Shown: one piece after another, positions 7,956 to 61,964 of the stretch
Numbering within the stretch: the first letter of the stretch is position 1
Layout of the letters: each line of letters begins with the position of its first letter
Assembly: GCA_027493615.1 (NCBI GenBank)
Contig: JAOSKK010000001.1
Location: forward strand, 175,629-239,628
Direction of reading: 5' to 3'
DNA: 64,000 nucleotides
Origin: Verrucomicrobiota bacterium
GTDB lineage: Bacteria > Verrucomicrobiota > Verrucomicrobiia > Limisphaerales > J093
Position numbers and translations under genes: made by a program
Notes under the pieces: model-generated
What the model was told of the DNA's origin: nothing
What the model saw: only the letters and a program-made list of their open reading frames with translations
Databases searched by the model: none

Positions 7956-10900
7956 GCTTGCCCTCCGGTGGGAAAACAAAGAGGACGCCCAGCGGCTGCG
8001 GTGTCCCCGGTTTCACGCCTTGCTCGAATTTCGCGATCTCCTCCAGGCGGCGCTGGTGGAAGGTGTCCACCGACGCCCGCTTGGCTTTGAAGCCATAAAC
8101 CTCGCGCCGATCAAACAGCAACTGCCCCTGTTCCTCGACGGCCAGCGCCTGCTTTTCCTCCAGGTCAATCTCCGCCAGGCGGTCGGCGCGGTATCGCGCC
8201 GCGTCCTCACGAAGCACGGCGGCGAAGTCTTGCCGGGTGCGCGTTTCCTCTGCCGCCTTTTCCTCCAGCAATTTCATCGCGGCCTCGCCTGCCGCCGCCT
8301 GCAACTGCTTGAATCGCTCGCCAAACACCTTTTCGACTTCTGCCCAGGGCACTTCTCCTGGCGGGAAGGTGGTGTCGAGGGCGGCAATAACCTGATCCTG
8401 CGGGAGCGTTTTGCCAGAGGCATCAATGGCAACCGCAAGGAATTGCCCGTGGTCGTGATCGTCCTGCCGCAGGTAGGTGAACACGGCATACGGGCCTTCG
8501 TCCGCGAACGGGTGACGGCGCACTGCCAGACGGGCCGAGGAGGCGTTGGGATCGCGGGGCGAGGTCAACTGGCGGTGAGCATCCTGCGCCATCGCCTGAA
8601 AGAGCGGATGCAGCCGTGTGACGAACTCGACATCCCGCGCCGGGTATTGGATGGCGACGGTTCGACGGAACGTCAGGCATGGGTACGACTCCGCAACCTG
8701 CGGGCCTTGAAACTCCCGTGGTGTCCGCAGCGAAAACGTGCCGGGAATCTGGCCGGGTTTCAGGTGCGTGCGAAGCCGGGCGAGCATGAACCGCTCGAAC
8801 GACTCGTCATCCTGCATCACCTGGTCGGCAGACAGGCTATTGGGATCAATCTTCGCGCCGTAGCCGGGCCTGCCACTCATGAGCAATGGGGCAACTTCGC
8901 GCAGGAATGAATCGCGACCCTCGTCCAGCTTGCTGAAAATCCTGTCAGTTGCCGTCGTGGTGTCGCCTTCGGCGTCCAGTTCCGTCAACGCCTCCTCGAT
9001 GCGCTGGCCAGCCAGGATGCCAAGGATGTCCGGCGTGGAAACCTTGTCGGACTGCATCTGGACGATCCGTTTCACGAGGCGGTCGAGGACGTTGTCCTCC
9101 GGCGAATCGGGGTAGAACAGGTAGCGGATGATCGGATTCCGGGTCTGTCCGTGGCGATCCACGCGACCGTTGCGTTGTTCCATCCGGTTGGGATTCCAGC
9201 TCAGCTCGAAATGGTAAACACGGCGGCAGAATCGCTGGAGGTTCAACCCTTCGGACGCGGCGTCGGTCGCCAACAGCAGTTTTTTTCCTGGCTTCTCGAA
9301 ATCGGCCAATCGCCCCTGGCGTTTTTTCGAGGACAGCCCGCCTGTCAACTCAACGTAGCAGTCCTTGAACTCCGGGCGTGCGTCGAGGGCAGCCTTGATC
9401 GCGCCCAGCGTGTCCAGGTATTCGGTGAAGACGATCGCCTTTTCGTCGGGCTGCGAGAGGACATCGGCCTCCAGATCGGCGACGAGCGCCCCGATCTTGG
9501 GATCAGGCAGAGTCTTCACCTGGTCGATCAACTTCTTAATTTCCTGGAGTTGCTTCTTTTCGGCGCTGCGCCGCTTGGCGTCCTTCGACACCGTCGCCTT
9601 GACGATCCGGCTGGCGATGCGTTCGTGGGTCTTTTCGTTCAGCGGCAGGTCGCCCTGCAACTCGCGGACTTCGGATCGCGTGGGAGCTTCTTCCTGCTGC
9701 GTGCGGCTGGCCAGGGCCTCCAGGCGCTTTTCCACCGTGTTGGCCAGGGCCGTCCGGCTGGACAACATCCGCTTCTTGATGATCTGCATGGCGAACGACA
9801 CCAGCTCGGCGTCGTCGGTCTGCCGGGCGGCTGCGGTGGTCTTGGCGCAGTAGGAGGAGACCTTCTTGAAGATGGCCTTCTCCGCGTCCGCCAGCGCCGA
9901 CACGCTGATGGCCTTCACCGGTTCGCGAACCTTGAATGCGGGGATTCTGCTGCCGTCCGCCCCGGACTTGGAGATGTCGCCTTTCAGGCGGCGGATCATG
10001 CTGCGGCCCACGCGACGGGCGACCACGGTCTTGTCACCGGTGAAGCTGGCATCCGTGGGTTCGACGATTTCGAGTAGTGACCGGAAGCTGTGGCTGTAGC
10101 CGTTGTGCGGCGTCGCGGACAATAGAATCAACGACTTGGTGTGGTCGCGCAGCTTCGGGCCAAGTCGAGCGCGAGCGGTGAGGTAGGGCTGCGCGGCGTG
10201 CCGGATTCCGCCAGATAGTGTGCTTCGTCAACGACAATCACGTCCCAGCGCGGCTCAAGGGCGCTGGCCAGAACCTCCCTCTTTTTCAGGTACTCGATGG
10301 ATGTGATGACCCGGTTCAAGAAGACCCAGGGTTTGATCCCTCCGACAGACGGGTTTGTGCCCGTTCCAGGGCCGCTGCGTTTTCGATGGCCTCGAACTTG
10401 AGGCCGAATTTGGTCAGCATCTCCTCCTGCCACTGCGGGATCAGGCCGGGAGGGACGACCAGGAGGATGCGTTTCCCGCGCCCTCGGGCCAGCAGCTCCA
10501 GCAGGCAAATGCCCGCCTCAATGGTCTTGCCAAGGCCGACATCATCCGCGATCAGCAGGCTCGGGCGTGGGAGCTGGAGCATTCGGGCCACGGGCGCGAA
10601 CTGGTAATGCTCAGGCGAGATGCGCCCGCCGTAGAACGCGGCGAACTCGCCGGAGTCCACGCCGGACATCTTCAGGGCCAGGTTCGCCGACTGCCAGGTT
10701 TCAAACGGAGCAACCGCATGCCTGGCGAACACCGGCGACTCCTCCGGCAACGATTCGTAGATTTCGGGCGGGCACAGGGCTTCGAGCCGCTCGGCGCTGC
10801 TCGGGTCAAAAAGCCGGAAAAGGGTCTTGTTCTCGGCGACCTTCGTCGCCGTTTCCACCCGCCAAGCTTTGTCACGTAGAAGAATGCGTTGCATGGGCCG

Positions 10901-15863: not shown

Positions 15864-17430
15864 TCAGCGCGGACGATAGCTCAGGGCCAGCGCCCGGCGC
15901 AGCTCTTCGCGGTTCAACGCGTCGTGGAAGTCGATGGGGTTGAAGTCGTCCGTCAAGACGCGGCCGCGGTCGGGCGCGGTGTGACGACGGCTGGCGAACG
16001 CTTCTTCAACCCGACCCCGGATCATCCAGGGGACGCCGGCGAAATCGGGCGTCTGGCGCAGCGTCAGGTCCGGGCGATCCGACGCCACGAAGAACACGTT
16101 GCCGTTGCCGGCGGCGTGGATGCGGTGTTGGGCGAAGACCGCGGCCAGCGTGCGTGACAGTGAACTGATCAGGAAGTCCCGGCCGGGGGTGAAGTCGCCG
16201 AACGCATTCATCACCAGCACCCCGCCGGGCTTGAGGCAGCGGCGCATGGCGGCGAAGGCCTCGCGGGTCATCAGGTGGGAGGGCGGGGATTCGCCGAGGA
16301 AGGCGTCGAGCACCAGCACGTCATACCGCTCGGCCGTCGTCATGAGGAACTGCCGCCCGTCACCGAGGTGCAACCGCACGCGGGCGGGGTCGAAGTCGAA
16401 GAACCGTTCGGCCACCGGCACCGCGGCGGGATTGATCTCGACGACGTCGACGCGGGCGCCTTCGCGCGCGAACTGCATCGGCACAATGCCGATGCCCAGG
16501 CCGATGCAGAGAACCGTCTGGGCTTCGGGCGCATAGCCGCGCCCCAGACCATGCAACAGGTAGGTGAACAGGGACAGGCTCTGACCGGTCTGCGGGTTGT
16601 AGGTGTTCTGGCTGAGGAGGTCGTTCAAGTAGTACCGCGCTTGGCCTTCCTCGCTCTCCAGCACTTGCAGCATCCCAAAGTTCGAGTTGCCCCGATAAAG
16701 CTCACGCCACCCGGTCTGCGGCGCGAACGGCGGGCGCATCGCCCCGAGGAACCCCAGGAACGCGGTCACTCCGCCGAGGACCAGCACCGGCGCCAGCGTG
16801 CGGCGCTGCCAGACGGCAAAGTACCCCACGGCCACCAGCAGCAACGCCACCGCGCAGGCGTACAGGGTCATCGAGTTGGGCATGCGCGGGATCAGCACAT
16901 ACCCGGCCAGCACGGTGCCCGCCACGCTGCCCAGCGTGCTCAAGGCGGTCAAACGCCCCACGTTCCAGCCCACCGCAGTCACTGCCGACGTGAGCACCCG
17001 CGCGAAGAAGGGCCCGACCATGGCCAGCAAGGCGAGGGGCACGAAGAACAGGAACAGCGCCCCCAACACCGACCCGGATTCGATCCCGAAGCGCAGGCAG
17101 AAGAAGGCCGCCGGTTCCGCCGCCAGCACCGCCCCGCACAACCACGCGCTCGCCCCCGCGATCCCGCCGTACACCCACGCCGGGCGCGGCGACTTGTCCG
17201 CCACCCATCCCCCGGCCGCGTACCCCGCCGCCAGCGCCAGCAGCGTCACGCCAATCTGCGCGGTCCAGACAAAATGCGAGGTGCCGAAGTACGGCGCCAG
17301 CAGCTTGGCCCCGACGATCTCGGACGACCATGATCACCCCGCCGGTGAGGGCGGCGGTCACGAACAGGAACCGGCGCAGACCCGTGGACAGCGTTGAACC
17401 GGCCGGCGCCGCGGTGCGGAATGGTTTCAC
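15864..17430 (-). CDS. Membrane-anchored spermidine synthase-like (polyamine aminopropyltransferase family) protein; frame broken once
   Basis: ORF 15864..17249 has several TM segments followed by a methyltransferase-fold domain ('VLCIGLGIGIVP', 'VDVVEINPAAV', 'YDVLVLDAF'). The N-terminus 'VKPFRTAAPAGSTLSTGLRRFLFVTAALTGGVIMVV' (GTG 17430) lies in the frame of ORF 16702..17523 and joins near 17325 (...EIVGAKLLAPYFGTSHFVWTAQIG...). Confidence 0.8.
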
Positions 17431-17517
17431 CCGCTTGTTGTAGGGGGACCGATCCCTGGCGGCAAGTCGGGGCAATCGTCGCTTGGCAGAGCCCCCTGGC
17501 CGGCCTAGGCTGCGCCT

Positions 17518-18070
17518 GTGCAATCCGCGCTCCGTTTCGCCGCGATCCTTAATGCCGCGGTCTGGCTGGGGGCCACGGTGTTCTTCACCGTGGGCGCGGC
17601 GCCCGCCATTTTTTCCGAGGCCATGGCGTCCTTCCTGCCGGCGCCTTTACCGGGCGCGCGTGGCCGAGCTGGTGATCGCCCGGCTGATCGTGGTGCAGCA
17701 GGTCTGCGGGCTGGTGGCGCTCGGGTTGCTCGTGGTTGAGTTCATCCGTGCCGGACGAGTGACGCGGCGGGTGACCCTGGGGGTGGTGTCAGGTCTCTTT
17801 GCCGCGAGCCTGCTTGCCGGGTTTGCCTTCGCGCCCAAGATGCACTCGCTCCAGCAAGTCCGGTATTCGGCCCGGTCGACCCCCGCGGAACGGGAGGCCG
17901 CCGAACGCACCTTCAGCGTGCTGCACGGCCTTTCGCAGGCGTTGAACGTCTTCGTGCTGGCCGGCCTGGTCTTCCACCTCTGGCAGGTCACGCGTCCTCC
18001 CGAGACGCCGCGTTGGAACGTCTTCCGTTCCGCCGCGCCCTCCGACGGGACGGTCCCGCGAATGTTGTGA
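17518..18070 (+). CDS. Small multi-pass membrane protein (DUF4149/TMEM205-like); frame broken once
   Basis: 'MQSALRFAAILNAAVWLGATVFFTVGAAPAIFSEAMASFLPAP' (ORF 17518..17739) continues in the frame of ORF 17483..18070 ('YRARVAELVIARLIVVQQVCGLVALGLLVVEF...LSQALNVFVLAGLVFHLWQV') after a shift near 17645. The family assignment is only from general resemblance. Confidence 0.5.
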
Positions 18071-18130
18071 GTGCGTGAGCTCCGCCGGTGCGCTTGACGC
18101 CCCGACCGCACCCGATAGTGTGGCCGCCTC

Positions 18131-18920
18131 ATGAAGCGTCCCTTCTCTGGCCGCGCCGAGCCGCGCGCGCCGCTCCTGGAGGCATTCTCCCGCGGCTTCA
18201 CGTTGATCGAGTTGCTGGTCGTGATCGCGATCATCGCCATCCTCGCGAGCCTCCTGTTGCCGGCGCTGGCCAAGGCCAAGGAGAAGGCCCACCGCACCGC
18301 CTGCATCAGCAACCTCAAGCAGATCGGCCTCGCCATGCATTTGTATGCCGACGACAACCGGGATCAGATGGCGCCGCCGAACTGGGGCAACGCTGCCCCC
18401 GGCTGGCTCTACACACCCGTCGGAGGCCGCCCCCCGCAACTCAACCGCACCAACGAGACCCTTCCCTACCAGACCGGCCTGTTCTGGCCTTATGTCAACG
18501 CCACCCGCGTCTACATCTGTCCCACTGACCGCACCAACGCCGTCAACTGGAAGGCCCGCGACAACAAGCTCTCCACCTACACCATGAACGGTGCCGTCTC
18601 GAACTACGGCGCGCTCGCCGACCGCAAGCCCAGCACGTACAAGCTCGGCCAGTTCAACCCCGCCGCCTACGTCCTCTGGGAGCCGGATGAAGATCTCTAC
18701 ATCAAAATGTGGGGCTTCAACGGCGTCTACAACGACGCCAGCAACGAACCCGACCTCGCCTGCGGCGTGGGCCGCCGCCACATCAAAGGCGCCGACCTGC
18801 TCGGCTTCGGCGGTCATGTCCTCTTCATCCAGTTCCTCGCCTTCGAACGCGAACGCGAAAACAAACCCGGCCTCCTGTGGTGCGTCCCCGGACGACCCGC
18901 GCGGTGGCGCCACCCGCTAA
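18131..18920 (+). CDS. Prepilin-type N-terminal cleavage/methylation domain protein (DUF1559 / H-X9-DG-like pseudopilin family)
   Basis: '[32 protein letters not shown]' is the canonical type IV pilin-like signal. The C-terminal part '[21 protein letters not shown]...LLWCVP' resembles the H-X9-DG family ending. The in-frame stop is missing: the track shows a 943-aa ORF running on to 20962. One extra G near 18889 would explain this, and the repaired reading ends ...[13 protein letters not shown] at TAA 18918..18920. The 3' end is therefore uncertain. Confidence 0.8.
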
Positions 18921-18962
18921 CCCGGTCGCTCCTTGGACCGCCCGAAACCGCCAGAGACGACG

Positions 18963-19033
18963 GTAGGCGCCGACGTGAGGAGGCGCCGTCGCGTCGCCCC
19001 CGAACCGCAACGCCTCCTCAGGTCGGCGCCTAC
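18963..19033. repeat. REP-like palindromic element, single unit (site A)
   Basis: Left arm GTAGGCGCCGACGTGAGGAGGCG (18963..18985), a 25-nt loop, and right arm CGCCTCCTCAGGTCGGCGCCTAC (19011..19033). The arms are complementary at 22 of 23 positions. Confidence 0.85.
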
Positions 19034-19078
19034 GTCGGGTCTGAATTGTCCGCGCCAGCCAACTATCTCCCTCCCCGC

Positions 19079-21285
19079 ATGCGTTCCTCCCCTCCCGTTC
19101 CCCGAACCCGCCAGGCGTCGGCCGGCACCTTCGCCCTGTTGACACTCCTCGTTCTCCCCAGCCTCCGGGCTCTGCCGCCCACGCCGGCGCCTGAGCCTGA
19201 TTGGCTGTTGGCGGCCGACACCGGACCCGCCCGGGTCGTGGAATCCCCTGCTGGCAACGAGCTGCGACTCGAGAATGGTCTGGTGCGCCGCACCTTCCGG
19301 CTGGCGCCCGCGGTGGCCACCGTGGGGTTGGACCACCTCCGCACCGGGGTCAGCTTCCTGCGCGCCGTCAAACCGGAGGCCCTCCTGACCCTCAACGGCC
19401 AGGAATACCCCGTGGGCGGACTCCACGGTCAACCCAACCACGCGTACCTGCTCCCCGAGTGGATCGCGGCCCTGCGCCCCAATTCCAACGCCTTTTCCCT
19501 CCAGCACTGGCGCGCCGGCCAGCCCGTCGCACCGTTTGCCTGGAAACGCAAACGCCACAGCGCCGACCTCCCCTGGCCGCCGCCCGGCGCCACCCTGGAC
19601 TTCACCTACACCGGACCCGATGCCGCCACCCGCGGCGTGGCCGTCACCGTCCATTACGAGCTCTACGACGGCCTGCCGGTGCTGGGGAAATGGCTCACCG
19701 TCAGCAACGGCACCAGCCAACCCCTCACCCTGGACCGCGTCACCACCGAAGTCCTCGCCGCGGTCGAGGCGGAGTCGGCCGTCGATTCGCGCCCCACCAA
19801 CCGCTGGCGGCTTCCCCCGCTCGCGGTGCTCAGCGACTACAGCTTCGGTGGCATGGACCCGGTCACGTCGAGTCGCGTCACCGAATGGGTGGCCGACCCC
19901 GAGTACCGCACCCAGGTCCATTACGCCCGGCTGACACCCTGCCTGTTGCTCTGCCGGCCGCCGATCGGTCCCGGCGTGACCCTGGCCCCCGGCGAGGTCT
20001 GGCGTTCCTTCCGCGTCTGGCTCGTCCTGCACGACAGCGACCAGCGGGAACGACAGGGGTTGGCCTTGCGCCGCGCCCAGCGCGTCCTGGCGCCCTGGAT
20101 CACAGAGAACCCCATCATGATGCATGTGCGCAGTGCCGACACCGCCACCTTCCGCGCCGCCGTCGACCAGTGCGCTGCCGTCGGGTTCGAGATGATCATC
20201 TACACGTTCGGCAGCGGGCTGAACATGGAGAGCGAGGACCCCGCATACCTGGCCCGCATCAAGGCGGACGTCGATTACGCCCACGCGCACAGCCTCGAGG
20301 TCGGCGCCTACTCCCTGTTCAGCAGCCGCCGCATCGACGACGCCAACGACGTCATCCACCCCGACACCGGCAAACCCGGCGGCGCCATCTTCGGCAACGC
20401 CCCCTGTCTGGCCAGCGTTTGGGGCACCCACTACCTCCGTCGCGTCCGGAATTTCATCGAGCAGACCGGGCTTGATCTGCTGGAACATGACGGCCCGTAC
20501 CCCGGCGACGTGTGCGCCTCGACCTCGCACCCGGGGCATCGCGGGCTGGCGGACTCGCAATGGGTGCAATGGCGCATGAGCGCTGACTTTTACGCCTGGT
20601 GCCGCGAGCGCGGGGTCTACGTCAACGCGCCGGACTACTACTTCTTCACCGGCTCGAACAAGACCGGCATGGGCTACCGCGAGGACAACTGGTCCCTCCC
20701 GCGGGCGCAGCAGCTCATCCACGGCCGGCAGAACATCTTCGATGGCACCTTCGAGAAAACCCCTCGATGGGCTGGATGTTCGTCCCGCTCACCGAGTATC
20801 ACGGCGGTGGGGCGGCGGCGACGCTCGAACCGTTGCGCGACCATCTCGCCGACTACGAGGCGCACCTTGCCAACAACTTCGGCGCCGGCGTCCAGGCCTG
20901 TTACCGCGGGCCGCGCCTCTATGACTCGGACGAGACACAGGCCGTCGTCCGCCGGTGGGTGAGCTGGTTCAAGGAATACCGCGAGATCCTCGAGGCGGAC
21001 ATCATTCATCTCCGCCGCGCCGACGGCCGCGATCTCGACTACTTCCTCCACGTCCATCCCGGCCGACCCCGTTGCGGGCTGGCGATGATCTACAATCCGC
21101 TCCCCGAACCGGTGCGCCGGAACCTCACGCTGCCGCTGTATTACACGGGACTCACCGAGGCCGCCTCGATCCGGCAGGAAGAAGGCCCGCGGCGCCGCTA
21201 CGAACTGGACCGCTACCACCAGGCGAGCGTCGAGGTCGAGGTCCCCGCCCACGGCCGGACCTGGTTGTTGATCGAACAGCCTTGA
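19079..21285 (+). CDS. Secreted hypothetical protein, possibly a TIM-barrel glycoside-hydrolase-like enzyme (family not assigned); frame broken once
   Basis: ATG 19079, with signal-like '[17 protein letters not shown]'. There is a long conserved-looking body ('[16 protein letters not shown]', '[20 protein letters not shown]'). At the C4 run 20760..20763 the frame of 18131..20962 joins that of 20599..21285 (...FEKTP / [16 protein letters not shown]...). The function is inferred only from composition and context. Confidence 0.6.
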
Positions 21286-21324
21286 GAGCCGGTCGGCGAA
21301 GATCGCGACAGATGGCGACAGACG

Positions 21325-21438
21325 GTAGGCGCCGACGTGAGGTAGGCGCCGACGTGAGGAGGCGACGTCGCGTTGCCCCCGAACCGCAACGCCTCCTCAC
21401 GTCGGCACCCTACCACGCCTTCTCACGTCGGCACCTAC
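21325..21438. repeat. REP-like element, nested double unit (site B)
   Basis: There are two left arms: a partial one at 21325..21342 and a full one at 21342..21364. The loop is nearly identical to that of site A (CGTCGCGTTGCCCCCGAACCGCAA). Two right arms follow, CGCCTCCTCACGTCGGCACCCTAC (21390..21413) and CGCCTTCTCACGTCGGCACCTAC (21416..21438). The site lies between convergent genes. Confidence 0.85.
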
Positions 21439-21459
21439 AGCGGGTAAGCGATTCCCGGG

Positions 21460-22791
21460 CTAGGCTCCGGGCGCCACGTAGGTTTCCTCCGGCGGCAGTT
21501 GGCGGACGATCATGTCCACCGTGCGCTCGATGGCGCCGGTGCTGGACTTGACCACTCGCAGGGCGTTGGCCCCCAGCACGCGCCGGCGACCCGCATCCGC
21601 CAGCAAGGCGCCCACCACCCGCTCCAGCTCGGCGGCGTCCTGGACCTGTACCGCCCCGTCCTCGCGCACAAAGGCCGCCGCAATGGCCTCGAAGTTCTGC
21701 ATGTTCGGCCCAAACACCATCGCTTTGCCCAGCGCCCCCGGCTCGATGGGGTTCTGTCCTCCCCGCGCGGTCAGGCTCTTGCCCACGAAGATGACGGTTG
21801 CCTCTTCGTAGAAAGACCGGAGCTCGCCGGTGGTGTTGACCACCAGCGCCTGCAGCGAGCGCTCGGCCCAGCGATTCGCCGCCGTGATCTCGCGACGGTA
21901 CACAAACGGGATGCCGCGCTGCTCGAGTTCGCGGCCCACCTCCCGGCCCCGTTCAAAATGCCGGGGGACCAACACCAGAAACAGGTCGGGAAACCGGGCG
22001 CGCAGACGCAGGAACACCTCCGCCAGAATGGCCTCTTCCCCGGCGTGCGTGCTGCCGCCCAGCAGCACTGGGGCGTTGGCCGGCACGCCGAGTTGGCGCA
22101 GAATCGCCGCCACATCCAGCGCGCAGCGTTCCTCGAGTCGCGCTCCCTCGAACTTCAGGCTTCCCAGCACCTGCACGGCTTCGGGACGGCAACCCAGCTC
22201 CACCCAGCGCGCGGCGTCCGTCTCGGTCTGGGCCCCCACACCGGCAAACGTTCCCAGCAGCGGGCGGAACAGAAAACCGAAGCGGCGGTAGGCCCGGTAG
22301 GAGCGTTCAGAAAGGCGCGCGTTCACCAGCACGACCGGCGTCCGGCGGGCGCGCAGGCTCCAAAGGAAGTTCGGCCAGATCTCGGATTCGACCAGTACCA
22401 CGATTTTCGGTCGGATGACCTTGAGTGAGCGCGAGACCCACCGGCGCAGGTCCAACGGCCAGTAGATCTTCTCGATGCGACCCGGGAGCCGCCGGTGCAG
22501 TTCCTCGCGCCCCGTCGAAGTGTACGTCGAGCAAACCAGCTTGAGATTCGGCACCCGTCGCTCCAAGGCCTGCAGCAGGGGCAGGGCCAGGTTGACTTCA
22601 CCCACGCTGGCGGCGTGCAGCCACAGCACCTGGCGGTTCGTCAGCCCCACCTTGATCCGGGAGCTGAACCGCCCGAAACGCTCGCCCACACCCGAGCGCC
22701 AGCCCCCCCGCCGCATCATCTTCATCAGATAATACGGCGACGTCAGTACCAGCAGGATCGCAAAGAGGATGTTGTAGCAGGCGCGCATCAC
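21460..22791 (-). CDS. waaA: 3-deoxy-D-manno-octulosonic acid (Kdo) transferase
   Basis: Intact 443-aa ORF. It has an N-terminal TM helix, 'GERFGRF', 'LWLHAASVGEVNLALPLL' and 'GGSTHAGEE', and its length and layout are typical of WaaA/KdtA. Confidence 0.9.
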   Translation of the reverse strand: MMRACYNILFAILLVLTSPYYLMKMMRRGGWRSGVGERFGRFSSRIKVGLTNRQVLWLHAASVGEVNLALPLLQALERRVPNLKLVCSTYTSTGREELHRRLPGRIEKIYWPLDLRRWVSRSLKVIRPKIVVLVESEIWPNFLWSLRARRTPVVLVNARLSERSYRAYRRFGFLFRPLLGTFAGVGAQTETDAARWVELGCRPEAVQVLGSLKFEGARLEERCALDVAAILRQLGVPANAPVLLGGSTHAGEEAILAEVFLRLRARFPDLFLVLVPRHFERGREVGRELEQRGIPFVYRREITAANRWAERSLQALVVNTTGELRSFYEEATVIFVGKSLTARGGQNPIEPGALGKAMVFGPNMQNFEAIAAAFVREDGAVQVQDAAELERVVGALLADAGRRRVLGANALRVVKSSTGAIERTVDMIVRQLPPEETYVAPGA

Positions 22792-22920
22792 TCAGGCCGC
22801 GGCCCGCGATTCTGGGACCCCGCCCGAGCCGGTGCAACCCGGCAGTGGGGTCGATCCTCGATTTCCCGTTGACGACATGGGCCGGGTTGTGAGGACATAC
22901 TGAATTCTTAATGTGGTTGG

Positions 22921-25900
22921 ATGCTTGAAACGATGCCTAGAGGACGAAAATCCGTCGCCCCGCGCCCGGCTCAGGTCAACAAATACGACGCCACCCATAC
23001 GGCGCTCAAGACCGCGTATGGCGAGTGGGCGGACCTTCGCCGGGAACTTGCCGATTCCCGCGCCGCCGTCGAGGAACGCACCCAGTTGCTGGACCTCTTC
23101 GCCGGCTGCCAGGACTCCCAGCGCGCCTGGCTCCTCCTCGAGGACTACTTCGGCAAGCTCTCCCTCGCGCGCCGCGACTTCGCCGGTAACGAGTGGTGGG
23201 CCCGCCTTCTCGCCGTCCAGGGCCGCGCCCGCCTCGAGGAAACCGCCCTCCTCTTCCTGCGCAACAACCGGCCCCTGCCCAAGGAGCTCTCCGGCTACGC
23301 CAACTTCGAACGCCTCGCCGAACTCGAACGCGCCGAGAAGGAACAACAGCGCATCGCGGAGCTCGAACGCTGGCTGCTCCCCCAACTCGATCACCTCGAC
23401 TCGCCCCGCGCCCGGTTGCGCGTCCTCGCCAAAGCCGTCCCCAGCGCCACCGCGCCCGGCCGCCATGAACTCGAGCTCGACTTCCTCCTGTTCCGCCCCC
23501 GCTCCGGCGAGAAGGGCCGGACGTTGGCCGAACTGATCGAGTTGACCACCCGGGCCATGCATGAGCAGGAGCTCTTCGCCCCGCGCGACTGGGAGTTCCT
23601 TCGCTGGCTGGCCACCTTCTACACCAACGTCACCCTTCCGGAAGGCCCCTTGCGCCTCGCCGGCCTCGACCTGCTCCAGTGGCTCGCGCACTGGGGCAAC
23701 CCGCCCTGGATCGAATGGTCCGGCCGCGCCGAGAACGTCTTCTTCACCGGCCAGATGGCCGAGTTCGTCCCCCACCTCGAGAACGGTGACCACGAACTTG
23801 CCTTCACCCAACGCCTCCGCCTCCCGGGCAGCCAGGAACTCGACCTCACCCAGGCCCGCTTCTTCGCCGGCCAACCTCCGCTCATCGCCGTCGAACAGAC
23901 CTTCTACCTTCTCCGCAACGCCCCCGCCCCGGAATTGCTCGACTCTTTGCTGGCCCAACCCCGGGTCCCGGTCCGCAAACTCAGTCACCGCCTCCTCACC
24001 CACCTCCGCAAGACCCGCACGGGCAATGGCTCGGATTGGGGCAGCCTCTGCCGCGCCCACCACGCCCGCCCCCAGTTCACCTTCGAACTGGAAGACGAAA
24101 CCGTCCGCCTCCGCCTCCGCGCCGTCAGTGACCTCGACCAGAGTCGTTGGCAGTGGAACGGTCACGAATGGCAGCCCAGCGAGCCGCCCGCTACGACACC
24201 GGACAAACCCGAGGTCCTCGACGACCCCCGCCTCGACGCCGCCACCCAGTGGCTCCGCCGCCTCGACTGGTTCACCCCCGAGGCTGGCCTGTGGGTCGGC
24301 GATGCCAACGACGCCTTCCTCAGCTCCCTTGCCACCGCCTGGCCCGACCGACCCGCGCAGGCCGATTACCTCGCCAACGCCGCCTTTCAGCGCCTCTTCC
24401 TCCAGCCCCGCCAGCTCAAACCCAAGATCATTGTCCAGGGTAGTGGCATCGACTGGTTCGCCGTCTCCGCCGCCTGGGAACAGGAAGGCCTCAAGCTCAC
24501 CAAGGCCGACCTCGAACGGCTCGCCGCCGCCACCTCGCGCTTCGTCAAACTGCCCGACAGCGGTTGGGTCCAGCTCGACCTCGGCGCCGTGCAGCAGGCC
24601 CACGAAACCATGGCCGACCTCGGCCTCGACACCCTCTCCGCTCTGCCCCAAAAGGTCGACATGGTGCAGGCCGTGCACCTCGGCGAGGAAGGCCTCCAGC
24701 GCTTCGCCGATCTCCCCGAAACCCGCGCCCTCCGCGAACGCCTCGGCAACTTCCGCGGCGTTGCCTCCGTCCCCCTGCCCGCTGGCCTCAAGGCCGAGAT
24801 GCGTCCCTACCAGAAGGCCGGCTTCGACTTCCTCTGCCACCTCGCCCAGGTCAAGCTCGGGGGCATCCTGGCCGACGACATGGGCCTGGGCAAAACCCTC
24901 CAGACCCTGTGCTGGCTTGCCTGGCTCAAGGAACAGCATCCCAAGCGACCCAAACCCGTCCTGGTCATCTGCCCGGCGTCCGTCCTCCATAACTGGCGTC
25001 GCGAGGCCGAGAAGTTCACCCCCCATCTCAAAGTCCTGGTCTTCGAGAGCGGCCCCGCCCGGCACAACCTCCGCAAACTCATCCCCCAACACGACATCGT
25101 CGTCACCAACTACGCCCTGCTCCGACGCGACCTCGAGGGCCCTCAAGCGTTTCACGTTCCGCGCCGTCATTCTGGACGAGGCCCAGTTCATCAAGAACCC
25201 CGCCGCCCAGGTCAGCCAGTCCGTCAAACAACTTGAAGCCGACCACCGCCTGGCCCTCACCGGCACCCCGCTCGAAAACCGCCTGCTCGACCTCTGGAGC
25301 ATCGTTGACTTCGTCCAGCCCGCCTACCTCGGCACCCAGCAGCAGTTCCACGAGACCTACGAACCCACCGGCGAGGACGCCGAATGGAACCAGCGCATGG
25401 CGCGCCGCAAACTCTCCGCCAAGCTGCGCCCCCGTCCTCCTCCGCCGCCTCAAGAAGCAGGTCGCCCAGGACCTCCCGGACCGCATCGAGGAACGCCGCG
25501 ATTGCGAGCTCGAGGAGGCCCAGCGCAAACTCTACCTTGCCGAGCTGCGGCGCAGCCGCGAACAGGTCCTCCAAACCGTCCAGGAAAAGGGCCTCGCCCG
25601 CAGCAAACTCCAGGTCCTCGCAGCCCTCACCCGCCTCCGCCAGATCTGCTGCCACCCCACGCTCGTTGGCAGCGACTGCCCGTCGGGCAAGACCGACACC
25701 CTCTTCGAGCTCATCGAGCCGCTGCTCGACGAAGGACAGAAGGTGCTCGTCTTCAGCCAGTTCGTCCGGATGCTGCTGCTCCTTCAGGAGGAATGCCGCA
25801 AACGTTCCATGCCCACCCATCTGCTCACGGGCGATACCAAGAACCGGCAGGAGGTCGTCCAGGCCTTCCAGGAGGATCCCAACCCCTCGATCTTCCTCCT

Positions 25901-26192
25901 CAGCCTCCGCGCCGCCGGCACCGGCCTCAACCTCACCACCGCCAGCTACGTCGTCCTCTACGATCCCTGGTGGAACCCCGCCGTCGAAGCCCAGGCCATC
26001 GACCGCACCCACCGCATCGGCCAGACCCGCACCGTCAACGCCTATCGCCTCATCACCCCCGGCACCGTCGAGGAAAAGATCTGGGAACTCCAGCAGCGCA
26101 AGGCGCAGACCATCGCCGACGTCCTCGGGGAGGAAGGCTTCGCCCGCAGCCTCACCCGCGCCGACCTCGAATACCTGTTTGCCGAAGACTGA
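22921..26192 (+). CDS. SNF2-family helicase with a ~600-aa N-terminal domain of unknown function; frame broken twice
   Basis: ORFs 22921..25236, 23561..26290 (middle part only) and 25233..26192 join at G3 25137..25139 (...LLRRDLE / ALKRFTFRAVILDEAQFIKN...) and C5 25429..25433 (...SAKLRP / VLLRRLKKQVA...). Motifs: 'GGILADDMGLGKTLQTL', 'VILDEAQFIKN', 'LALTGTPLENRL', 'KVLVFSQFVRML', 'LLSLRAAGTGLNLTTASYVVLYDPWWNPAVEAQAIDRTHRIGQ'. The minus ORF 22792..25302 is an antisense shadow. Confidence 0.85.
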
Positions 26193-26442
26193 CCGCCCGG
26201 CTCCCGGGGTCGGACCACGACAAGTCGTTGATGGATGGAGTGATACGACTGCCGCCACCCTTCCCGGAAGACCTTGGGGGCAACTTCTGACGCCGAATCC
26301 TGCCTCCAAGGCCAGGACGGATGACCGGGGGGAGGGTGCGGTGGCCTGCCCGGCTTGTTGCAGGTCAAAACCACCGCGAGAAGTTGGCCGTAAGGGTATC
26401 CCGCGGCTCGAAGATCTCGCTAACCGACTTCGCGCGAAGCGC

Positions 26443-26836
26443 TTATCGTGATCCGACCTCCTCCTCAACTGGGCCCGCTTCGAACCGGGAGCGCGGGGTT
26501 CGCCATGCGGCCGCCAGCACCAGCAGCGCCGGCACAATCGTCACGCCGAAGAACAGCGGGAACCTCGGCCCCGCCTTGTCCACGAAGAAGACGAAGGCGG
26601 CGACGATGACCACCAAGCTCGCGACGCGTTCCCAGCGCCACAACGCGAGCAACCCGAGTAGCAGTACCAGGTGCAGCCCGTGCGCCCACCAAACCGCCAG
26701 CGGCGGCGTCCGGGGCAGGGGGCCGTACAAACCACTCGATCGTGTGCTCGACGAAAAAACTCCCCCAGAACAGGAAGAGCAGAAGAGCCAGGATCCGGCC
26801 CGCCCAACGCAGGACGGGTACAAACTTCAGATTCAT
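26443..26836 (-). CDS. Small membrane protein of unknown function; frame broken once
   Basis: 'MNLKFVPVLRWAGRILALLLFLFWGSFFVEHTIEWFV' (frame of ORF 26465..26851, ATG 26836) continues as '...PPLAVWWAHGLHLVLLLGLLALWRWERVASLVVIVAAFVFFVDKAGPRFPLFFGVTIVPALLVLAAAW' (ORF 26443..26823), with the shift near 26720. Confidence 0.5.
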
Positions 26837-26957
26837 TGCCAGCGTATGCACGGCGGAATCTCTACACCCCCACCGCCGCCCGGCGTGAATCGAAAGTCAC
26901 ACCCCCGCTATCGGTTGTCTCGATGGCTCCTCTCCGTGCCTTCGCGAGTACCCATGC

Positions 26958-28366
26958 TTACTCGATGACGACCTGCATCCGAAGCTCGAGCGGTTCCCGG
27001 TCAGGGCCGAGGCTGATGAGCTTGGCCGTGTAGCGGCCGGGCGTCGCGTACACGTGAGTCGCTTCCGCCTCGACCTGCATGGCGGGGGAACCGTCGCCGA
27101 ATTCCAGGGTCACGGGTGCGGTCGTGCCCCACAGCCGGGTCCAGAAGCGCACCGGCATTCCCGGCCGGCCCCCGCGCACGGGTGAGTGGTAGAACCAGCC
27201 TGCACCCATGCGCCCGCCCCGCTCCCGGTCCCATACGCGGAGTTGCACGTAGTCGCGATCCTCACTTCCATCATCAGCCCAGACACGCAGCTCTTCGCTG
27301 TACAGCCCGGGCCGATCCGCCCGGACCACCGCCTGCGCCGCGTCGACCTCGCGTCCATCATGGAGCAACCAGCGGTGGCGGACGATGCGTCCCCGGGCCG
27401 TGCCACGCTCCGCGAGGCGTCCAGCTCCACCGGTTCGCCCGGCATCGCGTAATGGTAGCCGCCCGCCACAGCGAGGACCGAATCCGGGTAGTCGCGCAGG
27501 TAGGCCTCCAGCGCGAACGGGTAGCTCGCCAGCGGTTGGCCATCGCGGAACACACCCCAATGCAGATGCGGATCATTGACCTGGGATCGCGGCCCGTCCC
27601 ACGTCATGCCGGTGCGGCCGAGCCGTTGGCCAGTCCCGACGACGACCCCCTCGGTCAGCCCGGCGGGAATCGTCTCCAGGTTCATGTGGTAGTAGGCGAA
27701 CTCGAGACCGGAAGCATGGCGGATGCGCAGATGGTTCGAATCCCCGTCGCCCTCCGGTAGCGGGGACTGGATCACGGTTCCGCCAAGGCTGGCCACGACT
27801 TCGAGCTCATCCGGGATCGCTCCGAAGTCTTCCCCGCGATGGTAGTAGAGCTTGTTGTAGGGAACGAGGGCCCCCCACGTGTTGCCATAGGTGTTCGCCT
27901 GCCAGCGAAAACGGGCGATGGGGAACCGCAGTTCCGGCGGGCCCCAGGGCATTCCCTCCGCCACGCAGGACATCTTGACGTGATGGGTCATCCCGACCAG
28001 CGGATCCAGTTGCGGCGTGGTGGCCCACGTGTGCGTGCTTTCCACGTACAGGCGCAGACCGTCCACCAGCCGAGGCGGCTCGAACGGACGCGCCCAGAGC
28101 GTGGCGCGAGTGCTCCCGACCTCGACTTGCACCTCGGCCGCACGCAGAACCGCGTGGCCGGGGGCTTCGGCGAGATGCCAGTTCGGCCAGCGGGATTCCT
28201 CCACCTGCAGCAGCCGGACTCCGCGCCGGACCTCACCCCCCGGGCCCGGGACACGGATTTCCTTCGCCTGACCGATGTCCAGTTCGAAGACCCGCGGCAG
28301 AGAGTCGCCGTGCTGCACCCAGGCGGTCCCCAATGGCACGAGCAGGCGGAATGAAAGGAAGCGCAT
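26958..28366 (-). CDS. Secreted M23-family metallopeptidase with a C-terminal PKD-like domain; frame broken once
   Basis: ATG 28366 'MRFLSFRLLVPLGTAWV'. M23 motifs 'YHRGEDFG' (HxxxD) and 'DPHLHWGV' (HxH). The C-terminal part in the frame of ORF 26958..27560 ('RHRWLLHDGREVD...THVYATPGRYTAKLISLG') looks PKD-like. The join is near 27405. Confidence 0.8.
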
Positions 28367-28600
28367 GGGGGTAGAGTTCCTGCTGGCCTGATCCCGTGAG
28401 AGTTCTGCTGGCACCTGGACGGGGTCGTTGCCCGCGGGCAAAGTCCTCCTTTGCGCACCCCGCGTAAACCGAAAAGGACGCGGGCGCGGGGCCTGCGCCG
28501 TCGGGGCGCCGAACCCCAGGCTGGCACGGGTCCCGCCTGCCCCGAGGGATCCGTATTGCCTCCGCGAGCCCCCGGCGTCACCCCTGCTCCCCACCGGTGG

Positions 28601-29202
28601 CTATGGCCACGGATTCTCGACGCGGTAGAACCGCCGGCTGTCCTTTGCCGGTTGGCTGTCGGTGAACTCATACCAGCCGGGGCAGAACTCCGTCGCCATC
28701 CCGCTCGGTGTCCAGTTGACGGCTGGCCCATCCAGGTCCGCGGTGCTGAGCACGCGGAAACCCAGGCCTGGCGTGTTGCGCAACCTGAAGTGAACGGCGC
28801 CCTCCGCCGACACCTCCACGCCCTCGATGACCACTGCCGTCGCGACCTCTGGTGGTGCGTCATACCGCTCGACGCTTGCGAATGCCGGGTCGTCGCTGAC
28901 CCCGCCCCCGAGGATCAGTACCTTGCCGTCGGCCAGCAGCGTGCCCGTGTGCCACTCGCGGCCGACCCCGAGCGGGGCGGGCGGCGTCATACACCAATCG
29001 GAGCCGAAACAAGGTGCTCGTTGTGCCCGTGCAGACCCGGGACGTCCAGCCGGCCGGGTAATGCCACCAGCTTGTGCCGACCAGGCCTTCGCTCTCCTTG
29101 TTCATGCGGCCCAACACGAAGCCGTGGACCACTCCAGTCTTCCACGCCTCCGTGTTGACGACCGCGAACTGCAACTGGCACGACGTATTCGAGCCCCCTC
29201 AT
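28601..29202 (-). pseudogene. Kelch-repeat-like protein remnant, multiply frame-disrupted
   Basis: ORF 28601..28990 contains one Kelch-like blade ('GREWHTGTLLADGKVLILGG') and a beta-sandwich-like tail ending 'RRFYRVENPWP'. Further Kelch-like text ('RPGRHKLVALPGRLDVPG') lies upstream in other frames (ORFs 28860..29174 and 28987..29202). There is too little room (<230 codons) before the neighbouring gene for a full-length propeller. Confidence 0.3.
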
Positions 29203-29278
29203 CCCGTCGCAACCGCACGCTCCTGTACGTGTTTCTCCCGATGCGGCCGGGATCGCTGCCTGACTCGGACCGCGCCCC

Positions 29279-30429
29279 TCAGAGCAGCTCCAGCACCCGG
29301 CCCAGTTCCGCCTGGGTGTTGTAGTAGTGCGGCGAGAGACGGAGATAGGCGCGGCCGGATCGGTCGCGGCGCAGCGACGTCACCACGCCGGCCTCGCTGA
29401 GCCGGTGATGCAGCGCCGGCAGGTCCGCGCCGGGTCGGTGGAAGGTGGTGATGCCGCCCGCGTTCTCCGGCGGTGCATCCGCCGCCAACACCTCATACCC
29501 GCGCTGCAGAAGCTCGCGCACCAGCCAAAACCGTTTCTGCTGCAGGTCCACCGTGATCGCCGGGAGCCCGACTTCAGCGAGGAGATCGAGGGCGGCGCGC
29601 AGGCCCAGGAGACCCAGCAGATTGGCGCTGCCGGCCTCGTACCGGCGGGCGTCGTTGCGGAACATGAGGTCCTCCTGGGCGACGAATTCCGGGCAACGCA
29701 GATTGTGCCAGCCGTAGACGCTGGGAGCGATCCGATCTTGCACCGCCTCACGGACGTAGAGGATTCCCGCCGCACACGGGCCGAGCAGCCACTTGTGCGC
29801 GTCCGCCGCCAGAACGTCCACGTGCTCGACGGTCGTTGGGAACGCACCCAGTGTCTGGATGCCGTCCACGCAGAACAGGATCCCCCGCGAACGGAGGGCC
29901 TGCCCCAGCCGCGGCAGCTCGAGGCGCCAACCCGAGATGAAGTGGGCTGAAGCCAGCGCGACGAGCCGGGTGTTTTCATCCACCTGCCCGAGGACCTCGG
30001 CGGCACGCAGTTCACCGAGGCGCCGGACGTTCAGGAAACGGACCTCGACGCCGCGGTCGGCCAGCGTCATCCAGGGATACACGTTGCTCGGGTAATCATC
30101 GAAGTAGATCACCGCGTTCGTGTTTCGCCGGAGATCGAGGCCGTTGGCGACGAAGCTGAGCGCCAGCGACGTCGGGCCCACCAACGCGATCTCGCCCGGT
30201 TGGGCGCCCAGCAAACGGGCGGCCGCAACGCGGGTCTCGGCCAGGAAATCCCGCGCGACCGCCGTTTCCTGATCGTCACCCGCACCCGCTTCCGCGCCCT
30301 GGGCGACGGCTTGGGCCACGCGTCGGGGCAGGGGACAGACCCGGCGTGGGCCAGGTAGATGCGCTGGCGGGTGACGGGGAACTCGTGGTTCCGGAGTGCT
30401 TCGTCGTTCTGGATTTCGGCGGGGGTCAC
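29279..30429 (-). CDS. Class V PLP-dependent aminotransferase / cysteine desulfurase-like enzyme; frame broken once
   Basis: The PLP-lysine motif is 'VLAADAHKWLLGP'. The N-terminus 'MTPAEIQNDEALRNHEFPVTRQRIYLAHAG' (ORF 30109..30429) joins ORF 29279..30319 at the C3 run 30340..30342, and the repaired reading gives the canonical '...HAGVCPLPRRVAQAV...'. Confidence 0.85.
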
Positions 30430-30451
30430 GGTCGGGGGGCGGCTGGCGGCT

Positions 30452-31405: not shown

Positions 31406-31512
31406 CGCGGTTGCGGGCCGAGCCTCGCGGTTGAGTGGTGGTTGTCAATCCAGGAGGCCATCGGCAGGACGGCTCTCCTGTGGGTCTCGGGCCGGGATGG
31501 GCTAACCGCGCT

Positions 31513-31655
31513 GTAGGCGCCGACGTGAGGAGGCGTCGTTGAGATGGGACAATTGTCACTTCGCCTCCTGACGTCGGCTCCTACCCCAATCACCCGTAGG
31601 AGTCGAGGTGACGAGACTCTGCCTCCCGCGTGAGCCTCCTGACGTCGGCTCCTAC
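31513..31655. repeat. REP-like element, composite of two units (site C)
   Basis: Left arm GTAGGCGCCGACGTGAGGAGGCG (31513..31535) and right arm CGCCTCCTGACGTCGGCTCCTAC (31562..31584). Then a degenerate left arm GTAGGAGTCGAGGTGACGAG (31596..31615) and a second right arm GCCTCCTGACGTCGGCTCCTAC (31634..31655). The site lies in a divergent intergenic region. Confidence 0.8.
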
Positions 31656-31854
31656 GGTCGGTCGAGGTCTCGCGGTGTCGCTTGGCGTTGGCGTTGCCTG
31701 CCGGCCGTGGCCGGGTAAGGTGGGGTCATGCATACGCCTCGTACGGCAGGAGAACACCGGTGGTCGCGCGGTTTTGGGTCCTGGTTTCTCGCCCTGGCCC
31801 GGCAAAGGGGAGGGTGGGCCGCTCTCGGGCTGGTGACCGCGCGGCTGGTCGGCG

Positions 31855-33763: not shown

Positions 33764-33884
33764 CCAGGCGCTCCGATGTTCACGGTCGGTCGCGGACCCG
33801 GTCGATCCGCCAGGAAGTGGTTGAAAGCCGGGGCGGGCCGCGGAATGCTCCCGCCCACCGCGGGCTTTCTCGCGCGTTTGCCTC

Positions 33885-36754: not shown

Positions 36755-36770
36755 GTAGGCGCCGACGTGG
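36755..36770. repeat. Solo half-site of the REP-like element (site D)
   Basis: GTAGGCGCCGACGTGG matches the first 15 of 16 bases of the REP left arm. I found no partner arm downstream. It lies 21 nt after the oxidoreductase stop. Confidence 0.5.
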
Positions 36771-61833: not shown

Positions 61834-61964
61834 GTAGGCGCCGACGTGAGGAGGCGCCGGGTCCGGGGCAACGCCACATCGCCTCCTTACGTCGGCACCT
61901 ACTACGATTTCGCCTCCTTACGTCGGCGCCCACTGCGATGTCGCCTCCTCACGTCGGCGGCTAC
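61834..61964. repeat. REP-like element with one left arm and three tandem right arms (site E)
   Basis: The left arm is GTAGGCGCCGACGTGAGGAGGCG (61834..61856). The right arms are CGCCTCCTTACGTCGGCACCTAC (61880..61902), CGCCTCCTTACGTCGGCGCCCAC (61911..61933) and CGCCTCCTCACGTCGGCGGCTAC (61942..61964). The period is 31 nt. Confidence 0.85.

Follow-up and report, generated by a model that had tools for sequence, protein, structure and literature searches.

To our knowledge, repetitive extragenic palindromic (REP) sequences and REP-associated tyrosine transposases (RAYTs) have been studied almost entirely in Gammaproteobacteria. In the 'REPtron' of Escherichia coli (PMC3333891; 4ER8, PMC3479197), a 5' GTAG foot stands beside an imperfect hairpin with an essential stem irregularity, two REP types alternate in inverted order with characteristic head-to-head and tail-to-tail linkers, which is the pattern of bacterial interspersed mosaic elements (BIMEs), and the repeats bracket the gene of their enzyme, TnpAREP. 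Binding by this enzyme depends on both the GTAG foot and the irregularity of the stem, and single-stranded DNA (ssDNA) is cleaved between C and T near REPs (PMC3333891). Here, we have analyzed a dispersed repeat with arms of 23 nt in a stretch of 64,000 nucleotides (hereafter the window) from a Verrucomicrobiota bacterium (contig JAOSKK010000001.1, positions 175,629 to 239,628). On the basis of current results, the repeats are very probably GTAG-tagged REPs arranged in inverted doublets, similar to REP doublets forming hairpins (REPINs) and to BIMEs, and they would be acted on by a RAYT/TnpAREP-type enzyme encoded elsewhere in the genome. They represent a previously undescribed REP family of a well-known kind of bacterial repeat, and not a new kind of system.

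In Pseudomonas, according to the accounts cited in two later papers, two inverted REPs and a spacer make up one unit of ~70-90 bp that is present in many diverged copies, and a low-copy RAYT gene occupies a fixed chromosomal position (Bertels & Rainey 2011; cited in PMC3733652, PMC6006769). The 71-bp units with homologous spacers in our data, together with a conserved dxs-RAYT-glyS order in three loci, resemble this description, whereas the phylum and the sequence are different, conservation is far stronger in the arms than in the spacer, and mutations in an arm have no compensating change across the long hairpin. The verrucomicrobium Opitutus terrae possesses the families GTAG-17 to GTAG-20, GTAG-tagged stem-loops that occur mostly as dimers (Di Nocera et al. 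2013, PMC3733652), and the superfamily to which such REPs belong typically has more than 100 copies per genome (Di Nocera 2013; Nunvar 2010). In O. terrae as in our data, dimers are joined tail-to-tail and their spacers vary; however, the published intragenic REPs of O. terrae encode GTGVPPV, VGPALAAG and VAGVADIGP, and not the VGADVRRR and RLLTSAPT strings of our repeat. Both GACGTGAGG and CGACGTGA were absent from the text and supplements of PMC3733652, the parts of that paper covered by the comparison, with the consensus sequences of its Figure 1 standing outside it. A full-text literature search for the consensus returned only unrelated sequences in papers on other subjects. These observations agree with the first-pass annotation of this DNA, to which no description of the consensus was known. 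Finally, the TnpA enzymes of the IS200/IS605 group (IS608, ISDra2) are HUH/Tyr enzymes that read a small imperfect hairpin and a 5' tetranucleotide on ssDNA, as is proposed for our system, and the RAYT model described below also matches their structures. In contrast to that group, the repeats examined here are not insertion-sequence ends, and they vastly outnumber the RAYT gene, which appears to be low-copy.

Occurrence of the repeat in the window and in related genomes

The 23-mer GTAGGCGCCGACGTGAGGAGGCG matched the window at 11 places with up to three mismatches, against none expected from 100 dinucleotide-preserving shuffles, and at 14 places with up to six. A covariance model (R1), built from 135 arms of all sources and run across the whole window with filters off, gave 13 matches (24.5-41.7 bits, E <= 8e-5), all of which were located within four intergenic gaps: sites A (18963-19033), B (21325-21438), C (31513-31655) and E (61834-61964). 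The next-best matches were far weaker, namely 14.9 bits at 20288-20313 and 14.2 bits at site D (36755-36770), a 16-nt half-site. No strong match could be found inside any gene of the 64-kb window, the best intragenic one being that of 14.9 bits. In total, the window contains 13 full arms (twelve of type 1 and one, at 31596-31618, of type 2, as defined below), one 17-nt partial arm (21325-21341) and the half-site, and every arm begins with GTAG or GTGG. The first-pass annotation had given the same coordinates for sites A-E and had placed the 23-mer and its complement only between genes, which is borne out by 13 of 13 strong matches. Its figure of about 13 arm copies is correct for full arms, to which the partial arm and the half-site have to be added. 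Likewise, its range of 0-3 mismatches is valid for 11 copies, while the arm at 21390-21413 has a 1-nt insertion and that at 31596-31618 belongs to the second type.

The weak match at 20288-20313 lies on the minus strand inside the gene at 19079-20962 (E ~0.05) and is confined to the first 12 nt, GTAGGCGCCGAC. It is probably a chance match, and it could be a decayed intragenic arm.

We also scanned one genome per species with an exact pattern, GTAGGNGCCGACGTNAGGAGGCG, which covers one stem variant only, and at least 77 loci were found, almost all of them in Verrucomicrobiota genome bins with 53-69% GC. The motif is therefore not restricted to the window, nor, as far as the window shows, does it occur equally in coding sequence, two outcomes that would have argued against a dispersed family. 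About 45 of the matches listed belonged to 'Verrucomicrobiales bacterium H5_VER1' (JABTUJ01); these separate loci, beside 13 arms in 64 kb of the window genome, suggest a high copy number without being a count. Exact-pattern arms were also observed in two bins labelled as Acidobacteriota (Ca. Sulfopaludibacter and Ca. Acidoferrum) and in one labelled Akkermansia muciniphila (L007, L037 and L061), which could reflect mis-binning, horizontal transfer or a wider range.

One H5_VER1 locus (L011) was 92% identical to positions 16905-24929 of the window, and thus the window comes from a close relative. Sites A and B occupy the same positions in both genomes, with arms identical at 23/23 and 22/23 positions. 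The spacer of site A was only ~60% identical between the two genomes, compared with ~85-90% for the flanks, and the window spacer (18986-19010) was closer to the site B spacers of both genomes than to its own ortholog (spacers compared: window 21365-21389, which is 2.3 kb from site A, and L011 5896-5919 and 3543-3566). This pattern suggests that conversion or replacement may have taken place between neighbouring units. The sole change in arm content between the two genomes at these sites was found at site B of the window, where a stretch of ~27 nt with an extra 17-nt partial arm is missing from the ortholog.

A GTAG-tagged hairpin within each arm

Beyond its part in a large palindrome, each 23-nt arm is a complete REP itself, a GTAG-tagged hairpin. 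It consists of a GTAG-G head, a 4-bp stem, tandem GA/GA and a GTNA tetraloop enclosed by a single C:G or G:C pair, and a fifth stem pair (G:C or G:T) is present in 77 of 135 arms. The form with the C:G pair (GACGTGAGGA) is here called type 1 and that with the G:C pair (GAGGTGACGA) type 2; one example of the isolated hairpin, written as a DNA oligonucleotide, is d(GGCGCCGACGTGAGGAGGCGCC). The arms thus have the features of GTAG-tagged REPs, that is, an unpaired 5' GTAG at one end of a stem-loop, a short stem-loop with complementary halves (23 nt, within the usual 20-40 bp) and, in the window, an extragenic location. Compared with the E. coli REP, whose bulged stem has ~12 bp, the hairpin is far shorter (4-5 Watson-Crick pairs followed by GA/GA, the inner pair and GTNA), and no sequence similarity extends past GTAG.

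The pattern used for collecting arms fixed only the head and the 10-nt core and left the stem bases free. The four bases on either side of the core are complementary within one arm and vary among lineages, and at least nine fully compensated variants were observed (CGCC/GGCG, AGAC/GTCT, AGCC/GGCT, AGTC/GACT, GGAC/GTCC, GCAC/GTGC, AATC/GATT, CGAC/GTCG and AAAC/GTTT). Across 492 arm instances, the head was G in 488, T in 464, A in 474 and G in 492, counts obtained with a search pattern that demanded GTAGG with at most one mismatch, so that greater divergence could not appear. Positions 3 and 8 of the core, which were left free, formed C:G in 378, G:C in 143 and other combinations in 6 of 527 arms; the four bases enclosed by this pair were GTGA (248), GTAA (168) or GTCA (99), and the flanking GA...GA was invariant in 398 of ~430 arms.

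When the six-pair helix was examined in 135 distinct arms, 89.3% of cells were paired, compared with 72.3% in column shuffles. Double-change cells, which include copies related by descent, numbered 125 against 43.9 in the shuffles, a value reached in 0 of 500 of them, and sliding the partner columns reduced pairing to 50% or less. It should be noted that 13 of 148 randomly drawn pattern matches, which looked like chance matches or contained indels, were removed by hand from the underlying alignment (A4), and this slightly favours the structure counts. It is known from nucleic-acid chemistry that 5'-GA/3'-AG forms sheared G.A pairs, and by analogy the tandem GA/GA of the arms may form such pairs as well.

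A RAYT-type gene family in related genomes

Among the genome-scan loci listed, the RAYT search found only one relic, at locus L055. Two arms 505 bp apart bracket an open reading frame (ORF) that ends in ...IIHYIAENPARADL...WPYTG and has suffered a frameshift and an internal deletion of ~60 aa (4024-4574); the arm upstream of this ORF (4552-4574) is the exact 23-mer of the window. The fragments of the relic had no match in Pfam. A large protein search with the stitched translation returned 277 proteins of 180-210 aa, several of which have the JGI name "REP element-mobilizing transposase RayT"; a precomputed Pfam domain is absent from all of them. Other ORFs, located between arm pairs 800-970 bp apart (L031, L027), were considered as RAYT candidates and rejected: a PIN-domain gene was recognized among them, and the remainder are unrelated ORFs.

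The family has the conserved motifs MPDHxHL (HUH), FQPQxHDH and Y..NP, and residues H73, H75, Y132, N136 and P137 are invariant or nearly so in 16 sequences. When its profile was compared with PDB sequences, the sole match was E. coli TnpAREP (4ER8, E 3e-6), with the HUH, WQ-region and Tyr motifs aligned and positions 15-148 of the 189 query residues covered. An AlphaFold model (pLDDT 88.8) also had 4ER8 as its best fold match (E 1.3e-7, template-modelling scores 0.64/0.70), followed by the IS608, ISDra2 and IS200 transposases (E 5e-4 to 1e-3). Thus, in HUH motif, Y---NP tyrosine motif and fold, the family agrees with the RAYT/TnpAREP group (class 2 TnpAY1, Quentin 2018). In E. coli, contacts to GTAG are made by Q95, E100, H101 and R104 (PMC6006769), whose counterparts in the alignment are Q, D, H and R; the E-to-D substitution is reported in that paper for subclasses 2.5 and 2.7. 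GTAG- and hairpin-dependent cleavage and rejoining of single-stranded REP DNA by the family may be predicted from these aligned contact residues. The enzyme is only 17% identical to E. coli TnpAREP in structural alignment, and it carries a C-terminal extension of ~40 residues (VPGYP...FW..FW) that lies outside the sequence alignment with 4ER8. All 16 members matched NCBIfam REP_Tyr_transpos (NF047646; best E 2.7e-15) below its cut-off, for example with 44 bits against 80 for one member (P0003), and 8 of 16 matched Pfam Y1_Tnp (PF01797) weakly (best E 0.0045).

Linkage between the repeat and the RAYT gene

The contigs of five homologs were examined, which came from bins labelled Terrimicrobiaceae, Limisphaerales and Verrucomicrobiales and from two metagenome contigs. 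In four of the five loci (L078, L081, L083 and L084), the gene is closely preceded by a forward arm and closely followed by an inverted one; at L083, the upstream one is the exact window 23-mer, 63 bp from the RAYT gene. L080, the remaining locus, differs in that its nearest downstream arm is forward and degenerate. When metagenomes were scanned with the RAYT protein alignment, 80 loci were obtained, in which the two sides were counted separately for loci with enough flanking DNA. An arm was present within 250 bp upstream in 68 of 73 loci and within 300 bp downstream in 61 of 73, and 56 loci had arms on both sides. A RAYT gene flanked by inverted copies of the same REP, the characteristic organization of REP-RAYT systems, is therefore found in related genomes, and the search for a RAYT or IS200-like gene recommended in the first-pass annotation has led to an HUH/Tyr family.

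Pairs of RAYTs that share the flanking stem variant were more similar than other pairs (70.8% versus 64.6% identity; reached by 0 of 1000 permutations). This fits co-divergence of stem and enzyme, and shared ancestry alone could also give it. In L055, L083 and L084, dxs lies on one side of the RAYT gene and a gene for a class II aminoacyl-tRNA synthetase on the other, the latter being glycyl-tRNA synthetase on the basis of the L055 sequence. The homologs of L083 and L084 are intact at the position of the L055 relic. The dxs-RAYT-glyS position hints at stable chromosomal inheritance in that clade.

The same data bear on the possibility that the repeats are bound by a DNA-binding protein of the host, such as gyrase, a regulator or a nucleoid-associated protein, and were amplified for chromosome organization. 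REPs and BIMEs of E. coli bind IHF, gyrase and Pol I (PMC3333891, PMC2817692), and the 10-nt core and GTAGG head of our repeat are almost invariant across genomes of 46-69% GC, as would be the case for a site recognized by a protein. However, the covariation indicates a single-strand hairpin and not a duplex site, the tight linkage to the RAYT gene points to RAYT as the reader, and linkage to the repeats was seen for no other candidate protein. We regard this possibility as highly improbable.

Arrangement of arms and spacers

Among neighbouring arms, the tail-to-tail arrangement was counted 50 times, the head-to-head arrangement 5 times and the direct one 22 times. Tail-to-tail spacers had a mode of 23-27 nt (33 of 50 cases), and tandem arms were spaced by 0-8 nt. 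Inverted dimers or BIME-like clusters are therefore frequent, as in known REP families. At site A, the arms at 18963..18985 and 19011..19033 make a REPIN-like tail-to-tail dimer of 71 bp (DNA fold -33.6 kcal/mol, z -6.7). Two arm types are mixed at site C, which forms a small BIME-like module: its type-2 arm (31596..31618) is head-to-head with the arm at 31562..31584 across an 11-nt linker and forms a type-2/type-1 heterodimer with the arm at 31633..31655 across a 14-nt spacer. Alternating REP types are the BIME pattern of E. coli (PMC3333891). Beside RAYT genes, heterodimers of the two types dominate, with 56 heterodimers versus 14 and 16 homodimers in the tail-to-tail arrangement (linkers of ~28 nt) and 31 versus 7 and 7 in the head-to-head arrangement (linkers of 8-12 nt).

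Head-to-tail arrays were observed as well, including four abutting copies with a 23-nt period (L076, 2162-2253), an array with a 30-nt period (L074, 7620-7702) and five copies with a period of ~42 nt downstream of a RAYT gene (L122). Such fixed periods imply a local amplification process distinct from doublet formation.

The tail-to-tail units of ~71 bp in the window and H5_VER1 have a homologous asymmetric spacer, roughly TTGTGGGCCAGGGGCAATGCCCCTT, with its own mini-hairpin. This spacer is oriented one way at window sites C and E and the other way at A and B. The first-pass annotation had noted a loop shared by sites A and B, which are indeed 23/25 identical; its statement that the other loops differ has to be revised, as all are diverged copies of one spacer. 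In a comparison of 27 units, the arms were nearly invariant and the spacers heavily diverged, and the 21-pair helix between the arms showed one compensated change against many uncompensated ones. Thus, conservation acts on the sequence of each arm and not on arm-to-arm pairing. A long 23-bp inter-arm helix as the primary selected unit was rejected, since it is without compensatory change, which the helix within the arm has.

Could the hairpins instead be host-selected RNA elements, such as terminators or stabilisers of mRNA 3' ends, with an incidental RAYT association? The doublets fold very stably (-33 to -47 kcal/mol, z -5.5 to -8.8), sites A, B, D and E each lie 3' of at least one gene, and REPs of E. 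coli stabilise upstream mRNA. However, no T-tract follows any site (the next bases are GTCGGG at A, GGTCGG at C and GGGCGG at E), so that the repeats do not have the form of intrinsic terminators. A scan for terminator and promoter consensus sequences registered nothing at the sites, and 0 of 15 terminator-like sites in 18000-37500 coincided with A-D. In addition, site C is located in the promoter region of divergent genes, and the orientation of the units with respect to the genes beside them is not uniform, both being found. Rfam at gathering thresholds registered only a tRNA in the window and no RNA family at the repeat sites. The uncompensated arm mutations in the long helix also disagree with such elements, and the conserved parts, the GTAG foot and the small hairpin within the arm, are features read by RAYT enzymes. 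The terminator role considered in the first-pass annotation is thus unsupported, and selection as RNA elements appears very unlikely to explain the family; a host-level role, whether in protection of mRNA 3' ends or in protein binding, would be secondary.

The inverted-repeat unit with a variable centre of ~25 nt, dispersed in intergenic DNA, is also what would be seen in miniature inverted-repeat transposable elements (MITEs), deletion derivatives of an insertion sequence with a DDE transposase in which the 23-mers would be terminal inverted repeats. In contrast to MITEs defined by terminal repeats, arms also occur singly, in tandem (0-8 nt) and head-to-head, and a covarying hairpin with a GTAG foot is present in every arm individually. 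By inspection, no target-site duplication was seen at sites A, C and E, and the sole gene consistently bracketed by arms encodes an HUH/Tyr enzyme and not a DDE transposase. The repeats therefore do not conform to MITEs, and this origin is scarcely credible.

Features of the window and neighboring genes

The coordinates of all arms and spacers in the window are shown in Table 1.

Table 1 Arms, spacers and partial copies of the repeat in the window
Feature	Position	Strand	Basis
Site A type-1 arm, GTAGG-CGCC-GACGTGAGGA-GGCG, perfect consensus	18963..18985	+	covariance model, 40.0 bits
Site A spacer, 25 nt, reversed relative to family spacer consensus	18986..19010	.	spacer alignment
Site A inverted type-1 arm, 1 mismatch	19011..19033	-	pattern and covariance model
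Site B partial arm, 17 nt, fused to following arm	21325..21341	+	in ~27-nt stretch absent from H5_VER1 ortholog
Site B type-1 arm, perfect	21342..21364	+	pattern and covariance model
Site B spacer, 25 nt, 23/25 identical to site A spacer	21365..21389	.	comparison
Site B inverted arm, 1-nt insertion (GTAGG-G-TGCC...)	21390..21413	-	covariance model, 24.5 bits
Site B second inverted arm, 2 mismatches	21416..21438	-	pattern and covariance model
Site C type-1 arm, CGCC stem, perfect	31513..31535	+	pattern and covariance model
Site C spacer, 26 nt; mini-hairpin GACA-AT-TGTC in place of family GGGGC-AAT-GCCCC	31536..31561	.	
Site C inverted type-1 arm; 5' half AGCC, 3' half GGCG, one stem pair mismatched	31562..31584	-	
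Site C type-2 arm, GTAGG-AGTC-GAGGTGACGA-GACT, inner pair G:C not C:G	31596..31618	+	38.3 bits
Site C inverted type-1 arm, AGCC/GGCT stem	31633..31655	-	41.7 bits
Site D truncated arm, first 16 nt only; relic	36755..36770	+	14.2 bits
Site E type-1 arm, perfect	61834..61856	+	pattern and covariance model
Site E spacer, 23 nt, forward family orientation	61857..61879	.	spacer alignment
Site E inverted arm 1, 2 mismatches	61880..61902	-	pattern and covariance model
Site E inverted arm 2, tandem, 8-nt linker	61911..61933	-	pattern and covariance model
Site E inverted arm 3, tandem, 8-nt linker	61942..61964	-	pattern and covariance model

The gene context of the sites was assessed by codon-position GC and by Pfam matches on the flanking ORFs. 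Sites A and E are each situated between genes in tandem: at A, a DUF1559/N-methyl pilin-like gene is followed by another gene of the same strand, and at E, the neighbours are an ORF without annotation (61006-61776) and a GH127 gene (62076-63722). Site B is between convergent genes, a plus-strand ORF ending at 21285 and a Kdo transferase gene (21460-22791, minus strand), and site C between divergent genes, a 2-hydroxyacid dehydrogenase gene (30452-31405, minus strand) and a DUF2961 gene. The half-site D lies 21 nt past the stop of a GFO/IDH/MocA oxidoreductase gene. All three gene orientations mentioned in the first-pass annotation could therefore be recognized, and so could its peptide strings, as VGADVRRR and RLLTSAPT are direct translations of the arm sequence.

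Formally, site A is situated within an uninterrupted frame (18131-20962), because the DUF1559/N-methyl pilin-like gene of the window has one extra C at 18886-18889 relative to its H5_VER1 ortholog, by which the TAA stop kept in the ortholog (18918-18920) is lost; the upstream frame then reads through site A into the next gene (ATG at 19079). The extra C is either a real frameshift or a homopolymer sequencing error. Codon periodicity is absent over 18860-19160, and thus site A is non-coding in practice.

Forward type-1 arms (for example, at 18977-18983) contain AGGAGG, a perfect Shine-Dalgarno core, and inverted ones (for example, at 19013-19018) contain CCTCCT, which is the same as the anti-Shine-Dalgarno core. 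The arms are ~100 nt away from the nearest start codons. The AGGAGG is probably a by-product of the purine-rich hairpin, and arm copies could titrate ribosomes if transcribed.

Several other features of the window were recorded. Positions 1-10000 have a GC content of 0.595-0.644 compared with 0.65-0.69 in the remainder and hold no REP arms; they may be a compositionally distinct segment. The ~1.1 kb beside the truncated arm D (36770-37900) has a slightly lower GC content (0.65) and several overlapping ORFs of 148-194 aa, for which neither a Pfam match nor similarity to RAYT was found. A degraded RAYT or inserted element beside the half-site (ORFs in 36774-38216) was rejected on the basis of the missing Pfam matches. 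The sole RNA gene detected in the window by Rfam and ARAGORN is a tRNA-Gly (anticodon CCC; 59496-59569, plus strand), which is unrelated to the repeats.

Mechanism and significance

The first-pass annotation had suggested an analogous REP/BIME-type family in this lineage, and the dispersal, the intergenic bias and the RAYT linkage support this suggestion. We propose that the GTAG foot and the irregular GA/GA hairpin would be recognized on ssDNA by an HUH tyrosine enzyme of the RAYT/TnpAREP type, with its gene in another part of the genome, an action put forward because of the homology with E. coli TnpAREP. Such an enzyme would cut and rejoin the DNA nearby, giving rise to doublets, tandem arms and new copies, and in this way copies in intergenic DNA would be created, duplicated and homogenized. 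By analogy, we infer both that the RAYT acts on the arms and that the genome of the window encodes one.

Several observations weigh against this explanation. No RAYT gene was found in the 64-kb window by motif regular expression, tblastn or a maximum-sensitivity hidden Markov model search, nor in the ~45 H5_VER1 loci among the matches listed; thus, the cognate enzyme of this lineage is a predicted one. No insertion polymorphism was observed either, both comparable sites (A and B) being occupied in the window and in H5_VER1. The hairpin of a single arm is only marginally stable (-2.8 to -7.6 kcal/mol in nearest-neighbor DNA folding), a low energy that we attribute to the parameters, which do not credit sheared G.A pairs. 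The cell counts of the covariation analysis overstate independent events through copies related by descent, and the restriction of the scan to one stem variant makes the abundance and taxonomic range biased lower bounds. In addition, the family scores under the curated cut-offs of both Pfam Y1_Tnp and NCBIfam NF047646. These cut-offs are library thresholds and not biochemical definitions, and the low scores mark a divergent RAYT clade and not an exclusion from the group.

A broader interpretation, which we hold tentatively and consider quite possible, is that the recognition core (GTAGG foot, GA/GA, swappable pair and GTNA) has been fixed in one Verrucomicrobiota-wide superfamily, whereas the 4-bp stem has co-diverged with a RAYT clade that is missed by the Pfam and NCBIfam thresholds. 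This superfamily would comprise genomes of 46-69% GC from several named orders, with the dxs-RAYT-glyS position in some lineages. If true, it would represent an old, mainly vertically inherited REPIN-RAYT partnership outside Proteobacteria, and research on DNA recognition by RAYTs would gain a 19-nt hairpin substrate that is unusually simple and specified at every position.

The family adds a well-resolved example from the Verrucomicrobiota, with a compact hairpin in which each position is invariant or covarying, and thereby provides clear predictions on recognition by the enzyme. As the RAYT clade is not called by standard domain libraries, such genes are annotated as hypothetical proteins. 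The repeat also explains the recurrent spurious peptide strings VGADVRRR and RLLTSAPT and the run-through ORFs in annotations of high-GC genomes. Its arms mark intergenic DNA, and they can confound gene calling and the assembly of Verrucomicrobiota metagenome bins.

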